Below are positions 27,345 through 32,000 of a stretch of 32,000 nucleotides of DNA, in pieces (within the stretch, counting starts at the first letter, position 1; each line of letters starts with the position of its first letter). The position numbers and the translations under genes were made by a program. The notes under the pieces are model-generated. The model was given only the letters and a program-made list of their open reading frames with translations, had not been told where the DNA came from and made no database searches. The DNA is from Moraxella nasicaprae (lineage in GTDB: Bacteria; Pseudomonadota; Gammaproteobacteria; Pseudomonadales; Moraxellaceae), in NCBI RefSeq assembly GCF_025643275.1, contig NZ_CP089977.1:1950001-1982000 (forward strand). Direction: 5' to 3'.

Positions 27345-27407
27345 CAAACCGTCCATCATTTCGTCTTATTTTTTTGTGCAAAAAATAGCCAAAAATTCAA
27401 TTTGTCA

Positions 27408-27436
27408 TTGCAATATGCACACATTTGCCGTATAAT
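27408..27436 (+). promoter_or_regulatory. Sigma70-type promoter TTGCAA - 17 nt - TATAAT for the RHH gene
   Basis: -35 at 27408-27413 and -10 at 27431-27436. It lies inside the ORF-track start (27402), which supports the downstream ATG at 27462 or 27468. Confidence 0.55.
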
Positions 27437-27461
27437 TGCCAGCTTTTTAGTATGTAGGAAC

Positions 27462-27644
27462 ATGACGATGACTCAGCAAGCCGATCACGAAAAACAAACC
27501 ACTTTTAATATGCGTGTGGATAAAAACTTGGTGGAGCAATTTAAGCAGGCGGCTCGTGCCAATAATCGTACCGCCAGCCAGCTGTTGCGTGATTGCATGA
27601 TTGATTATGTTAAGAAAAATCGCCAAGCAGACATGTTTAAATGA
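27462..27644 (+). CDS. Small ribbon-helix-helix (CopG/Arc/MetJ-type) DNA-binding protein, antitoxin-like, with no partner gene
   Basis: TTFNMRVDKNLVEQFKQAARANNRTASQLLRDCMIDYV fits a beta-strand/helix/helix RHH pattern. It is 60 aa. Confidence 0.65.
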   Translation: MTMTQQADHEKQTTFNMRVDKNLVEQFKQAARANNRTASQLLRDCMIDYVKKNRQADMFK

Positions 27645-27697: not shown

Positions 27698-28858
27698 TTA
27701 AACCAAAATCAGCCAATTATCGTTGAGCCAAGTTGTCAGGCTGGTCAGGATTTCTTTGCCATCAATATCATCAATGGCAATCGCATCGCCTGAGGTTAGC
27801 GTTTGTAATAGTGATAATTCTTGCTCATTTAGACAGATATTTTCGCCATTGATGAACCACTGACCCTGATGATGTACAAATCGACAAGCAGGATTGAGCA
27901 TCAGGCATTCGCCATCGTTGAGTCGGTCGGACAGCTCATCATCACTAAGCTCATCTTCAAAAGATAGCAACTCATATTGGCGTTTGCTGACCAATTCGGC
28001 AACCGCCTGAGTGATGATGGCGTCTCCTTTGTCGCTATTTAGGGTAGCAAGCAGTTCGTTTTTGATGGCATTGATGCTTTCTTTGCTCAATTCAAAAGCG
28101 TCCGCTTGGTAACTTTGTGGCAAAGTCATCACGGTAAACAGCTCGCTTTGCGTGGTGGCGACATCAGCGATTTCATCAATGACTTGCACCAAATTTGGAC
28201 GGCGAAAACCAAATGAGAAGGTAAGACAGTCATCTTGGGCGATGCCGTGATGGCTTAGGCGTGGCGGTACATACAGCACATCGCCAGCTTCTAGCACTTC
28301 ATCAAAAATAATCTCGCCCATGTCATCTAGCAGGCGAATGGGCTGACCTGCCACAAATGGCGTGCCAGCATCGCACATTTTGCCCAGTTGCCAACGGCGA
28401 GACCCATAACCTTGTGCCAAAAAGACATCATATTCATCATAGTGAGCCCCGACCGAGCCGCCTTTTGGGGCGACAGAGACCATGATGTCGTCTTGTTGCC
28501 ATTTTGGAATAAAATCAAAGGCTTGCCACAGTTCGCCCAGCTCAGGCGACCATTGTTCCAGATTTTGCACCAAAATCGTCCATAGGGTTGGTGTACTATC
28601 GATGTCATCTTCACTCAGTGGCGATGATTTTAGCGACCACTGCATGGGATTATCGTCATGCTGACTGATGAGGCGTGCAGATACCCCATCTTCTACCGCC
28701 AAGCCCAGCACATCATCAGGCTCAAACATGCCCACCAAAGCAGGCAAGCCTTGTTTAATCAATAAAGGTTTTTTTTGCCAATATTCAGCAAGGAAAATCT
28801 CTGGCGTGATTCCCTCTGGCAGGCAAAATTGATTTAGTGTTTCGTGAAGGTTGTTCAT
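27698..28858 (-). CDS. roxA: JmjC/cupin ribosomal oxygenase, RoxA (YcfD)-like uL16 arginine hydroxylase
   Basis: FLAEYWQKKPLLIKQ start. The Fe(II) facial triad is in GGSVGAHYDEYDVFLAQGYG (HxD) and LYVPPRLSHHG (distal His). The length, with a C-terminal winged-helix-like part, fits YcfD. Confidence 0.75.
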   Translation of the reverse strand: MNNLHETLNQFCLPEGITPEIFLAEYWQKKPLLIKQGLPALVGMFEPDDVLGLAVEDGVSARLISQHDDNPMQWSLKSSPLSEDDIDSTPTLWTILVQNLEQWSPELGELWQAFDFIPKWQQDDIMVSVAPKGGSVGAHYDEYDVFLAQGYGSRRWQLGKMCDAGTPFVAGQPIRLLDDMGEIIFDEVLEAGDVLYVPPRLSHHGIAQDDCLTFSFGFRRPNLVQVIDEIADVATTQSELFTVMTLPQSYQADAFELSKESINAIKNELLATLNSDKGDAIITQAVAELVSKRQYELLSFEDELSDDELSDRLNDGECLMLNPACRFVHHQGQWFINGENICLNEQELSLLQTLTSGDAIAIDDIDGKEILTSLTTWLNDNWLILV

Positions 28859-29007
28859 AATTAACTCGTGATATTGGATTTGTGCCTAGTGTAACAAGTT
28901 TTTGGCATAAAACCAATAAAAAAGCTTAAAAGTCATGGTAAATTTAGCGTCTTTTCTTTATAATGGCGGGTATCTATCAATAATTTTTTTGACAATAAAG
29001 GTTGATT

Positions 29008-30108
29008 ATGTCTGAACATGACGATTTGGCAGAGCAAGAATTTGATTATGCAATGAGCGAAAATGGCGAGCTGACCCAAGCAGATATTGCAGCATTGTAT
29101 GCTGAGCTTGCTGAGGCAGAAAATGCCTTAGTTACCATTCGTGATTTTATCCGTTTTGTCGTAACAAAACTGCGTCAATATGATGTCGTGGTGGCACAAG
29201 GCACAACCGATGAATTTGCCGAAGCGGCGGCGATTGTACTGCATTCGTTATCATTGGAGTGGTCAGCTGATGAGCAGATTTTGGAATGTAAACTTACGCC
29301 CAGCGAAAAACAAGAAGTGCTGACCTTGTTGTCTGAACGCATCATTCAGCGTAAGCCGTTGTCTTATTTGATTAACTTAGCGTATTTTTGTAATTTGCCA
29401 TTTTATGTGGACGAGCGAGTTTTGATACCTCGTTCCCCGATTGCCGAGCTGATTAACCAAAAATTCTATCCATACTTTGATGTCGATGATGCCAAAAAAT
29501 CAGAATTTTTCCAACATGGATTGGCAGAAAAACAACTGTCCGCCCCAGAAAGGATTCTTGATTTGTGCACAGGTTCTGGCTGTATCGCCATCGCTCTTGC
29601 TAAGGCATTTCCTGACGCCAATGTGGACGGAGCAGATATTGATAAAGACGCCTTAGAAGTGGCGTGGACGAATGTTGAGCATCATGAGATTGAACATCAG
29701 GTCAATCTTTTAGAGAGTGATTTATTTGCCAAAATCCCTGCTGAAAATCAGTATGAACTCATCGTCACCAACCCGCCTTATGTGGATGCAGCTGTGATGG
29801 CAGAACTACCACCAGAGTTCTTGCACGAGCCAGAACACGCCTTGGCAGCAGGGCAAGATGGTTTGGATTTGGTGCATCAGATTTTGTACCATGCCCCTGA
29901 TTATCTAACCCCTGACGGCTTGCTTGTGTGCGAGGTGGGCGATAGTGAATGGGCGTTGCGTCAAGCCTATCCTGAGATTCAGTTTGAATGGCTCAACTTT
30001 GAAAAAGGCGGTAGTGGTATTTTTGCCATCGATTATGAAGAGTTGATGGAATATCGTGATGAATTTGCCCGCCAAGTAGAGCGAGTGACAGGTGTAGCAT
30101 TAGCGTGA
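29008..30108 (+). CDS. prmB: 50S ribosomal protein uL3 glutamine N5-methyltransferase PrmB, with an acidic N-terminal extension
   Basis: FYVDERVLIPRSPIAELI, DLCTGSGCIAIALA, IVTNPPYV, HEPEHALAAG and LVCEVG align with what I remember of E. coli PrmB. About 40 extra acidic residues sit at the N-terminus. Start at the ATG after AAAGG. Confidence 0.88.
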   Translation: MSEHDDLAEQEFDYAMSENGELTQADIAALYAELAEAENALVTIRDFIRFVVTKLRQYDVVVAQGTTDEFAEAAAIVLHSLSLEWSADEQILECKLTPSEKQEVLTLLSERIIQRKPLSYLINLAYFCNLPFYVDERVLIPRSPIAELINQKFYPYFDVDDAKKSEFFQHGLAEKQLSAPERILDLCTGSGCIAIALAKAFPDANVDGADIDKDALEVAWTNVEHHEIEHQVNLLESDLFAKIPAENQYELIVTNPPYVDAAVMAELPPEFLHEPEHALAAGQDGLDLVHQILYHAPDYLTPDGLLVCEVGDSEWALRQAYPEIQFEWLNFEKGGSGIFAIDYEELMEYRDEFARQVERVTGVALA

Positions 30109-30117
30109 GCAAATATG

Positions 30118-30153
30118 ACCGCCTACTGATGGTGAGTTTGGTAGGCGGTTTTG
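30118..30153 (+). terminator. Hairpin with a short T-tract after prmB
   Basis: ACCGCCTAC (30118-30126) pairs with GTAGGCGGT (30141-30149), followed by TTT. Confidence 0.6.
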
Positions 30154-30181
30154 GTCGTATTTGTGCGATTGGTTATTTGTG

Positions 30182-30955
30182 ATGAGTTCTTTGTCCAGAC
30201 ATCAACATTATCAGTTGTTAAATTTGCTTGGTTATGGATTGGCAAAATTTAATCGTGATTTTATCCAGCAGTTCAACTGCACCAATAAAGAGCAATTTTA
30301 TCAATATTTTGTAGATTTTGGCATTGTAGAGACCAAAAGTGTGGTTAAAAATCGCCAAGATTTATTTGATCCATATTTTGATAATGGTCGTCAAGGTTGG
30401 TGGCAGAAAAAAGAGGTCTATGAGCATAGAAAGATTTTAATTGATGGATTGTTTGGCAATGAAAATGTCATTGGCTATGCCAACATTATTAAACTGATTT
30501 TGCAGAATGAGTATCAGATTGATGATTTCTTGATTAAGGAAGATATAGAGCCAATCATACAATCCAAATTCAAAAAGATGCAAGAAACTGGTTTGGAAGC
30601 TGAACTTTATTTTATGCAGAATTATCAAAATATTGGGTTATTTAGTAATGGAGTTTTGCAAGACGCACGATTATTTGGCGATGGCTATGATTTTCAAATC
30701 AAAACAGGTTCAAATAATTATTTAGCGGAAGTCAAAGGCATTCGCCAAAATCAGGGTAAAATTCGCTTGACTGAAAATGAGTACATCAAAGCCTGCGAGT
30801 ATAAAAATGATTATATTCTGACTTTGGTGCTAAACTTAAATGAAATCCCAAGATTTTTGACGATTGAAAATCCAATTCATCAATTAAATTTTAAAGAAGT
30901 AATGTTGCAATCCAAACCGATTAAAGAATATCATTTGGAGCGTGAGATATGCTGA
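30182..30955 (+). CDS. Uncharacterised two-domain protein: unknown N-terminal domain plus DUF3883-like PD-(D/E)xK nuclease core
   Basis: The C-terminal half reads TGLEAELYF ... GDGYDFQI ... YLAEVKG ... LTENEYIKA ... YILTLV ... IENP. This is the E / D / E-x-K layout and flanking pattern I associate with DUF3883 restriction-endonuclease-fold domains. It is AT-rich relative to its neighbours. Start at ATG 30182; the ORF-track start is a TTG at 30161. No clear RBS. Confidence 0.7.
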   Translation: MSSLSRHQHYQLLNLLGYGLAKFNRDFIQQFNCTNKEQFYQYFVDFGIVETKSVVKNRQDLFDPYFDNGRQGWWQKKEVYEHRKILIDGLFGNENVIGYANIIKLILQNEYQIDDFLIKEDIEPIIQSKFKKMQETGLEAELYFMQNYQNIGLFSNGVLQDARLFGDGYDFQIKTGSNNYLAEVKGIRQNQGKIRLTENEYIKACEYKNDYILTLVLNLNEIPRFLTIENPIHQLNFKEVMLQSKPIKEYHLEREIC

Positions 30956-31197
30956 CTTTTGGGCAGAAAAAAGCATTATTCTTTAAATGCTTAAATGATA
31001 AAAATGGTTCTTATGGCGACATCATTCGTGATGAAGTGATGTTTTATTTTGATGATTTGGAAAATGATTTGGGCTTCTTGGATAAATATCAATCACAAGA
31101 AGAGATAGGTCATTTTACCAATATGTTGATTTCAAAAATCATCATGAATGAACATCAAGACAGTTTAGAAAATATCCTTATGTATTATTGTCAGTAA
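30949..31197 (+). CDS. 82-aa acidic hypothetical protein, translationally coupled to the nuclease-like gene
   Basis: The ATG lies 8 nt after GGAG and overlaps the upstream stop by 7 nt (ATGCTGA). By my count there are 14 D/E against 7 K/R. I see no recognisable motif. Confidence 0.55.
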   Translation: MLTFGQKKALFFKCLNDKNGSYGDIIRDEVMFYFDDLENDLGFLDKYQSQEEIGHFTNMLISKIIMNEHQDSLENILMYYCQ

Positions 31198-31505
31198 TTT
31201 TCCACCATGAAAATTCTTTCAAACAAAGATATGTCATTTGGGTTATCACACTAGATGGTCAAATTCTAACTTCAAAAGTTTGTCAAGAGAACGGCAAAGC
31301 CCTAATGACCAACCCAAATTCTGCATTGGCTGATTGGTTGTTACGCCAATGATTGAATTTAAAAGAAGGCGAATTGGCAGGTAATGAACGACTAGAATTG
31401 ATGGATTGTGATAGTGTCATTATTACCAAAATTGATGCAAATAAATATGTAATTAATAAGGCCAAATTTGGTAGTTATGAAACTTTTATTGAACAGTTAA
31501 AGTGA
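31170..31505 (+). pseudogene. Reading frame of about 110 codons interrupted by one in-frame TGA (31350-31352) and lacking an ATG start
   Basis: My translation is ...[99 protein letters not shown]. It looks protein-like on both sides of the stop. The only candidate start is TTG 31188. Confidence 0.4.
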
Positions 31506-31512
31506 GTATATT

Positions 31513-32000
31513 ATGTCAGGCAACACCATTGGAAAATTATTTACCGTAACCACCTGTGGCGAGTCGCACGGTGTGGGTTTGATGGCGATTGTGGACGGTG
31601 TACCGCCCAATTTGCCACTCACCGAAGAAGATTTGCAAATTGAATTGGATAGAAGAAAACCCGGCACTTCCAAATTTGCCACGCAACGAAAAGAAGATGA
31701 TAAGGTAGAAATCATCTCTGGCGTGTTTGAAGGCAAAACGACTGGCACACCCATTGGACTACTTATCCGTAACACCGACCAAAAGTCCAAAGATTATGGC
31801 AACATTGCAACAACCTTTCGCCCCAATCACGCCGATTATGCCTACACGATGAAATATGGCTTTCGGGATTATCGGGGCGGTGGGCGTTCGTCTGCACGAG
31901 AGACGGCAATGCGTGTGGCGGCAGGGGCGATTGCCAAAAAGTATCTTAAAGAACGCTTAGGCATTGTCATTCGTGGCGTTGTTACCCAAATTGGCACGGA
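31513..32000 (+). CDS. aroC: Chorismate synthase, 5' part; continues beyond the window end
   Basis: My translation is [51 protein letters not shown]...[24 protein letters not shown], the diagnostic AroC N-terminus. It is not in the ORF track because it is open-ended. Confidence 0.93.

Follow-up and report, generated by a model that had tools for sequence, protein, structure and literature searches.

A small NOV_C nuclease gene still under selection in the relic of a restriction-modification cassette of Moraxella nasicaprae

The DUF3883 domain, now called NOV_C, has been published as a PD-(D/E)xK family (Steczkiewicz et al. 2012, PMC3424549) and, in YenY4I and McaZI, enzymes that depend on 5-methylcytosine or 5-hydroxymethylcytosine, as the catalytic domain (Lutz et al. 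2019, PMC6765204). Enzymes of this type are found either alone or next to cytosine-C5 (C5) methylase systems (PMC6765204). B3-like DNA-binding domains, in turn, are carried by restriction enzymes of the NgoAVII/CglI and BfiI/EcoRII types (PMC4267653). Here we describe a NOV_C protein of 257 amino acids (aa) encoded by Moraxella nasicaprae, in a stretch of 32,000 nucleotides (contig NZ_CP089977.1, positions 1,950,001 to 1,982,000; hereafter the window, whose own numbering is used below). Its gene lies between prmB and aroC in an island of low GC content, which is the relic of a cassette derived from a restriction-modification system, with one nuclease gene still under selection.

A two-domain protein ending in a NOV_C domain

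The gene runs from 30182 to 30955 on the plus strand. Translation from the ATG at 30182 yields 257 aa, as in the nearest homologues (P0001 from Moraxella sp., 98% identity, 257 aa), and an in-frame upstream TTG at 30161 would give a 264-aa version. The open reading frame (ORF) is real: homologues with full-length coverage form 1970 clusters, 411 loci were found in species-representative genomes, and the ratio of nonsynonymous to synonymous substitution rates (dN/dS) was 0.05-0.2 in every group. Bacteroidota, Moraxellaceae, Campylobacterota, Patescibacteria and even Streptococcus suis carry homologues with 58-62% identity.

A preliminary description of this DNA, made from the sequence alone, had proposed a DUF3883-like PD-(D/E)xK core in the C-terminal half of the protein. 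This assignment is confirmed by Pfam, which places NOV_C (PF13020) on residues 142-228: the match scores 58.8 bits, the cut-off being 22.1, has an E-value of 5.7e-16 and covers positions 3-91 of the 91 in the profile. The residues singled out in that description are all present (E139/E141, D167/D170 and E183-x-K185 in the 257-aa numbering), each being conserved in at least 97% of 208 sequences, and the domain (aa 136-257; 30587..30955, plus strand) displays the catalytic motif of the PD-(D/E)xK superfamily, D...(D/E)xK, with acidic residues on the preceding helix. Structure prediction, which had been suggested as a check, found the PD-(D/E)xK fold in the same half. A first AlphaFold2 model, built on a shallow alignment of 26 close homologues, had a predicted local distance difference test (pLDDT) score of 62.8, with values below 50 in a loop of the N-terminal domain; the final model, built on an alignment (A3) of 70 sequences including distant relatives of that domain, reached a mean pLDDT of 82.7. 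Residues 136-252 are modelled as helix, strands, helix, strands, in agreement with the alpha-beta-beta-beta-alpha-beta order of the restriction-endonuclease-like fold. Among PDB structures, Foldseek matched the archaeal Hjc resolvases (probability 1.0, target TM-score 0.5-0.6; for 2wcw and 2wcz 0.56-0.60, with a root-mean-square deviation of 3.5 A), SwaI, EcoRV, DpnI, a tRNA-splicing endonuclease and the nuclease domain of SPARDA, with modest E-values (3e-3 to 0.1). The viral structure library BFVD returned small PD-(D/E)xK nucleases and resolvases. We refer to the protein below as the nuclease, its activity, the ligand of its N-terminal domain and a role in defence being what we infer.

The N-terminal half had been described as unrecognised, and residues 1-135 indeed gave no match in Pfam, NCBIfam, PHROGs or PDB sequences. 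In the AlphaFold2 model this region forms an all-helical domain (about aa 8-112; 30203..30517, plus strand; hereafter the N-domain) with helices at 10-23, 25-29, 36-45, 52-65, 81-91 and 96-111. Used as query, residues 1-135 retrieved 127 relatives among 1.84 billion representatives. These share the signature [ST]-[IL]-K-N-x-R-D-x-F-D-P-x-F-x-N-G-R-x-G-W-[WY]-Q, which reads K56 N57 R58 x D60 x F62 D63 P64 ... N68 x R70 x G72 W73 W74 Q75 in the window, and K56, N57, D60, D63, R70, G72 and W73 are invariant columns of alignment A3. Apart from NOV_C, the partners of the N-domain are HNH (P0239, P0339), TIR_2 (P0243) and Mrr_N (P0213); it is also joined to a different nuclease-like C-terminus (P0166 and relatives), occurs as a tandem duplicate (P0165) and is found in proteins of about 235 aa having a helical N-terminal region. 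No Pfam model covers the N-domain region in any of these architectures, 15 diverse N-domain homologues gave no Pfam or PDB sequence match, and no recognised reader domain (PUA, DUF3427, SRA, EVE and the like) was found in residues 1-135 or in these homologues. Judged from this distribution, the N-domain would be a targeting or sensor domain that moves between nuclease and TIR effectors as a portable unit, a pattern typical of conflict systems. A further class of about 375-382 aa (L121-L132), mostly from gut and wastewater metagenomes, carries the N-domain at its N-terminus and an uncharacterised C-terminal region.

Origin, decay and survival of the cassette

The preliminary description regarded the protein as stand-alone. 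This view has to be abandoned: the nuclease is the surviving core of a four-gene cassette derived from a restriction-modification system, and in the window it is followed by an overlapping ORF and a decayed restriction gene. Preserved neighbourhoods carry on one strand a C5 methylase gene (M), the nuclease, a short ORF (S) and a restriction enzyme gene (R). The R proteins, members of a large family (4700 clusters), have 375-380 aa and a B3-like RE_NgoFVII_C domain in Pfam, and match the PADLOC REase_II model PDLC03479; their N-terminal region had no Pfam match, and neither a PLD nor another nuclease domain was detected there. In the window, what is left of R (31179..31505, plus strand) corresponds to the C-terminal ~109 codons of a 377-aa B3-domain enzyme. 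It matches positions 285-375 of the 376 in PDLC03479 and, weakly, Pfam RE_NgoFVII_C, aligns by tblastn with residues 269-377 of the R of locus L013, and is interrupted by an in-frame TGA at 31350-31352. No methylase remnant was found in the window, prmB being directly upstream of the nuclease.

S overlaps the end of the nuclease gene by 7 nt (ATGCTGA) in 68 of 88 loci and also in the window (30949..31197, plus strand). It matched no family, is conserved across phyla and evolves with dN/dS of 0.1-0.4; the window copy is an acidic protein of 82 aa (14 D/E against 7 K/R) with 61% aa identity to its orthologue in Moraxella sp. K23. Three unrelated types of S can be distinguished: type A, to which the window copy belongs, is acidic and 78-92 aa long, type B has 68-69 aa with CxxC...CxxC, and type C has 85 aa. 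The nucleases of L013 and L020 are 93% identical, yet L013 combines a type A S with a 377-aa R whereas L020 combines a type B S with a 400-aa variant of R. Diverged nuclease relatives have no S at all. Because S types follow the R type and are missing from diverged nuclease relatives, S is tied to R and not to the nuclease, contrary to what a simple toxin-antitoxin pair would lead one to expect.

Three loci with an intact R and no nuclease, which we call canonical, all have a complete M. In L090 (2406-5628) and L190 (2342-5634) the order is Vsr, a 129-130-aa ORF X, M (409-410 aa) and R, and the last two genes overlap at the M stop and R start; in L092, M (410 aa) is followed by an unrelated 107-aa ORF, with no detectable relation to S, and by R. 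ORF X of L090 and L190 has no annotation; it looks B3-like by eye ('GEGYLQIP...') and gave only a weak BLAST match to R. The uninterrupted canonical M/R junction reads ...CTTTATATGCAGGCAGGTAATTC..., and canonical methylases end ...LYMQAGNSVTTSLVERISNEIIKVF. Every nuclease-adjacent methylase of this cassette type stops before GNSV, the longest reading ...LYMQAS and then a stop. We take GNSV to be the core of motif X, which C5 methylases need for binding S-adenosylmethionine. In DNA alignments the left breakpoint falls after ...TATATGCAGGC, just 5′ of the GNSV codons, and the right one ~17 codons into R, so that ~115 bp of the junction are replaced by ~1.15 kb holding the nuclease, S and a conserved spacer. 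These alignments show that the cassette arose by replacement of the M/R junction in a plain Vsr-X-M-R system, with removal of methylase motif X. In L044 and L077 the nuclease junction directly adjoins Vsr; the ancestral composite was therefore probably Vsr-X-M(truncated)-nuclease-S-R.

A weak BLAST similarity between 'GNKHENYEILNLLGY' and the M.HhaI sequence 'GNSVVINVLQY' raised the possibility that motif X is supplied in trans or by readthrough of the M stop codon into the nuclease N-terminus. We rejected it for three reasons. The G-N pair varies, the window having 'SRHQHYQ' and L094, with its intact R, 'GT'; the M stop does not always share a frame with the nuclease ATG; and methylases next to other N-domain proteins have a motif X of their own. 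An intact R stands beside a clearly truncated M (120-273 aa) in L094-L097 (L094 on 46 contigs), L188-L189, L011 and L040. Locus L188 belongs to assembly GCA_036657355.1, whereas L094-type loci come from metagenome contigs. The obvious ways to account for this tolerance would be that S inhibits R or that the genome encodes a second methylase. The spacer between S and R (…AGCCCCGATTGCAGTGAAAATCCTTTTTTGAGAGGAACGAAC…; L013 2487-2560, L094 and L188 4476-4550) is near-identical among cassettes whose R proteins differ by 8-19%. Its GC content exceeds that of the adjoining sequence, and it may act as a regulatory element.

The decay of M and R was surveyed in 83 non-redundant loci picked for nuclease similarity. 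R was absent from 41 loci, partial in 18, near full-length but disrupted in 9 and intact in only 4, the remaining 11 being cut by a contig end. M was absent from 45 loci, partial in 22 and long in 6 (disruption was not scored), with 10 at a contig end. The nuclease was intact in essentially all of these loci, which had been chosen for it. An apparent shortening of R to 212-283 aa in most loci turned out to be an artefact of ORF calling, since tblastn traced R over nearly its full length in a single frame interrupted by stops. The R remnants keep their 3′ end; the last ~64 codons (from MTNPN...) form an ORF in almost all of them, with the proportion of nonsynonymous differences (pN) far below that of synonymous differences (pS), which suggests a retained mini-protein or a recombination arm.

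In an orphan group of Acinetobacter/Moraxellaceae, which shares one common upstream context and has no trace of M or R, the dN/dS of the nuclease is 0.06-0.12. Moraxella sp. K23 carries, at the same chromosomal site as the window, prmB, a 65-aa ORF, an M remnant (141 aa), the nuclease, S, an R remnant (72 aa) and aroC. From S into the R remnant, the window and K23 align collinearly, so that the truncation of R predates their divergence. Across this distance, at which synonymous sites are saturated, the nucleases share 77% aa identity (dN 0.16) against 71% for prmB (dN 0.23). These substitution patterns show that selection has long kept the nuclease and S in the absence of a functional R, including at the prmB/aroC site of the window. 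Such retention is the strongest evidence, drawn from sequence comparison, that the nuclease has a function of its own, and by the same measure it functions independently of its decayed restriction-modification neighbours.

The low-GC island covers ~1.4 kb (about 30150-31510), with a GC content of 0.30-0.33 against 0.45-0.50 in its flanks. On the left stands prmB (50S L3 glutamine methyltransferase; 29002..30108, plus strand; NCBIfam TIGR03533, E=1.7e-111), whose terminator hairpin, a 13-bp stem followed by a T run (30117..30153, plus strand), marks the island edge; RNA folding gave -24 kcal/mol and z=-4.7. On the right the 5′ part of aroC (chorismate synthase; 31513..32000, plus strand), identified by reading the sequence, runs off the window. 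It agrees with K23, where a Chorismate_synt gene has the same position and the alignment extends into the aroC start. Further upstream, the C-terminal part 'NNRTASQLLRDCMIDYVKK' of an 80-aa ORF (27402-27644, plus strand) resembles by eye a ribbon-helix-helix DNA-binding protein of the CopG/Arc type. This ORF lies between a membrane-protein gene and a 386-aa gene on the minus strand (27698-28858), for which NCBIfam gave no match.

Possible functions of the nuclease

On the strength of sequence and of analogy with described enzymes, we tentatively favour the view that the nuclease is a Type IV-like endonuclease that senses methylation state through a new helical reader. Its NOV_C domain would be a minimal PD-(D/E)xK core cutting DNA via a divalent metal at D170 and E183, with K185 completing the site and the invariant E139 and E141 placed on the first helix of the catalytic domain. 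The N-domain would sense how cytosine-containing DNA is methylated, or some closely related property of it, because the family so often adjoins C5 methyltransferase genes. The protein would then be built like the reader-plus-DUF3883 enzymes YenY4I and McaZI, with a new domain as reader. More speculatively, the cluster of invariant K, N, D, D, R, G and W could form a pocket for a flipped base.

A C5 methylase lies within 3.5 kb in 30 of 59 family loci, against our rough expectation of ~1% for a random gene. The linkage extends to several classes of N-domain protein. It was observed in all four loci of the 546-883-aa class and in 14 of the 27 loci of diverged proteins combining N-domain and NOV_C, and the ~235-aa class closes an operon of SNF2, HATPase_c_3, HNH, Dcm and mostly Vsr genes (3 of 3 contexts looked up; all 8 metagenome loci whose flanks were long enough). 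Several diverged nucleases have an intact methylase with motif X that overlaps them by 4 nt (L155) or lies 9-116 nt away: the spacing is 29 nt in L169 and L170 and 116 nt in L165, and in L176 and L178 M comes 9-10 nt after the nuclease. Vsr, too, coexists with the nuclease, in the order M-Vsr-X-nuclease (L145, L158-160).

The operon of the ~235-aa class, as seen in L103 (478-6714), L104 (57-6699) and L106 (17-6705), consists of genes for an SNF2 helicase, a HATPase_c_3 (GHKL) protein, an HNH protein, a C5 methylase, Vsr and the 235-aa N-domain protein, with Vsr missing from L103 and a weak HTH_3 Pfam match in the methylase of L104 and L105. It resembles an uncharacterised ATP-dependent system of restriction-modification type.

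Among the known roles of nucleases linked to C5 methylases, a Type IV-like role would fit best in that it tolerates orphan status. It would also fit the fusions of the N-domain to HNH, TIR and Mrr_N, and a distribution that, as for YenY4I and McaZI, is either solitary or methylase-adjacent. The loss of motif X in all linked cassette methylases is to be expected if the nuclease cannot coexist with methylase activity. The suggestion, made in the preliminary description, that the N-terminal region might be a sensor appears consistent with its modular use with HNH, TIR, Mrr_N and nuclease partners and with the strong C5 methylase linkage.

Several observations weigh against a Type IV-like role. 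In whole-model Foldseek searches of PDB and BFVD, which listed PD-(D/E)xK nucleases, the N-domain matched no known reader fold. Diverged relatives stand in apparent operons with intact C5 methylases (L155, L165, L169, L176, L178), an arrangement that would equally fit a cognate restriction enzyme or a repair nuclease, and the ~375-aa N-domain class shows no methylase linkage (0 of 11). A collection of 50,697 phage records held no homologue and a plasmid collection only two distant relatives. PADLOC gave only local matches to the C-terminus of TmtA. Nor does such a role account for S or the retained R tail. In the window, a promoter scan between the prmB terminator and the nuclease ATG found no site above chance; because this strong terminator precedes the gene and no promoter-like site was found, expression is unproven.

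A less likely possibility is that the nuclease, with S, belongs to a mobile selfish cassette that behaves in a homing-like way at the M/R junction of one Type II m5C family, destroying motif X and spreading as diverged copies recombine. In that case the nuclease would cut empty junctions or otherwise drive its own transfer. Insert-free canonical M-R loci do exist, with overlapping stop and start in L090 and L190 (L092 being a further insert-free case), the breakpoints are precise, and the phylogeny of the insert disagrees with that of its flanks. Canonical methylases nest inside the invaded diversity: the M of L013 is 87% identical to that of canonical L090 and 73-78% identical to those of invaded L038, L032 and L058. 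Among L058, L052 and L094 the nucleases are 92-97% identical and the M copies only 73-75%, whereas between L023 and L051 M reaches 88% and the nuclease 74%. Synonymous divergence (dS) between L002 and L063 is a mosaic, with 1.67 in the M remnant, 0.47 in the nuclease, 0.14 in S and 1.50 in the R remnant. In most M remnants it is the 5′ part that survives, leading into a conserved ...TTGTTGCTTAATTTATG junction, and none keeps the M 3′ end; together with the 3′ remnants of R, this would mean that deletions radiate outward from the insert borders, although the M 5′ end has also been lost in a minority (L001, L033, L043, L053, L057, K23). The same class of truncated module, defined by its S/R-tail junction, occurs at three chromosomal sites in Moraxella, and in M. 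nasovis the nuclease and S are found at a fourth, without an R remnant.

Vertical retention under strong purifying selection at one site where no target exists is nevertheless unexpected for a homing gene. No integrase or transposase figures in the gene lists of the examined neighbourhoods (no repeat search was made), and diverged members occupy quite different contexts, next to intact methylases. The mobility may simply be horizontal transfer of whole restriction-modification cassettes, and the signs listed above would suit whole-cassette transfer plus recombination as well as an active mobility mechanism. A mobile cassette and a role in defence are not mutually exclusive. They would be combined in a scenario that we find rather doubtful, in which the nuclease and S 'vaccinate against', or parasitise, one m5C restriction-modification family: the M/R junction is replaced and motif X deleted, R is tolerated (possibly neutralised by S), the nuclease reads the mark or the DNA of intact copies, and the host attacks DNA, phage or incoming restriction-modification elements bearing that mark.

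It is unlikely that the nuclease is the cognate Type II restriction enzyme of its neighbouring C5 methylase, the N-domain recognising a DNA sequence, NOV_C cutting and the methylase protecting the host. Its length of 250-260 aa is typical of restriction enzymes, the N-domain contains what we read from the alignment and the model as a helix-turn-helix-like segment, and diverged relatives form simple pairs with an intact methylase (L155, L169/L170, L165, L176/L178). An adjacent functional methyltransferase is, however, found only in some of these diverged relatives and is missing from the window. The cassette already has a separate, recognised restriction enzyme, and its linked methylase always lacks motif X. 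Moreover, about half of the loci have no methylase nearby and still conserve the nuclease, whereas an unprotected enzyme should be lethal or decay.

More unlikely still is a repair function in which the nuclease, as a non-homologous analogue of Vsr, nicks the T:G mismatches left by deamination of 5-methylcytosine. Its coupling to the 3′ end of a C5 methylase gene is tight and in some cases translational, as in dcm-vsr, the 235-aa N-domain proteins come directly after Dcm-Vsr, and an orphaned repair nuclease would be harmless to its host. True Vsr nevertheless coexists with the nuclease, both at the direct junction of L044 and L077 and in L145 and L158-160, which weakens the idea of a functional replacement for Vsr. 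The methylase in its own cassette is crippled, repair would not suit an N-domain that is also fused to TIR and Mrr_N, and long selection at methylase-free loci would be hard to explain. Finally, an addiction pair of toxin-antitoxin type, with the nuclease as toxin and the acidic 82-aa S as its inhibitor, could explain persistence after decay and would suit the acidity of S, its 7-nt overlap with the nuclease in 68 of 88 loci and the joint conservation of both in orphan loci, but it is very improbable and we rejected S as antitoxin of the nuclease, since the three S types track the type of R instead of co-varying with the nuclease, diverged nuclease relatives have no S and S matches no known toxin-antitoxin family.

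Comparison with known systems

In the literature searched, we found no description of the N-domain family and its methylase linkage, of a cassette that arose when a junction was replaced and motif X lost, or of a nuclease and S long surviving the death of their restriction-modification system. The architecture joining the N-domain to NOV_C had been called functionally uncharacterised, and our search of the literature likewise found no functional study of it. The history of the cassette is a concrete, testable case of invasion, disarming and erosion of a restriction-modification system in which the insert outlives both M and R.

The nuclease differs from the NgoAVII/CglI and BfiI/EcoRII types in that it is not itself the B3 enzyme, and the cassette has no helicase-like N/H protein. 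In PADLOC, its NOV_C domain is locally similar to the C-terminus of TmtA of the Tiamat system (E ~4e-8). This match spans 53-106 residues of profiles 1063-1782 residues long and the ATPase body is absent here, so that the protein is not a member of that system. It shares with the nuclease Vsr (PF03852) a small size, a fold of the restriction-endonuclease class and a gene position directly beside C5 methylase genes, but it has no sequence relation to Vsr (no Pfam Vsr match) and also persists without a methylase.

Most described DUF3883 proteins are large fusions with ATPase, helicase or GHKL domains, whereas the nuclease is short, with just two domains, and NOV_C has a new partner in it. The closest likeness is to YenY4I and McaZI (PMC6765204), which also combine an N-terminal reader with a C-terminal DUF3883 catalytic domain and are encoded alone or near C5 methylase genes. 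Their readers are PUA and/or DUF3427 domains, whereas the N-domain is all-helical and has no sequence relation to PUA, DUF3427 or SRA, and the protein has 257 aa against ~600 aa for the YenY4I/McaZI type. If the N-domain does sense the methylation state of cytosine, it would represent a new family of readers in prokaryotic epigenetic conflict systems, widely used with HNH, PD-(D/E)xK and TIR effectors, and possibly a new tool for detecting modified DNA. Joining a reader to DUF3883 is an established way of building a modification-dependent restriction enzyme; in the present protein an unannotated, widespread helical domain occupies the position of the reader.

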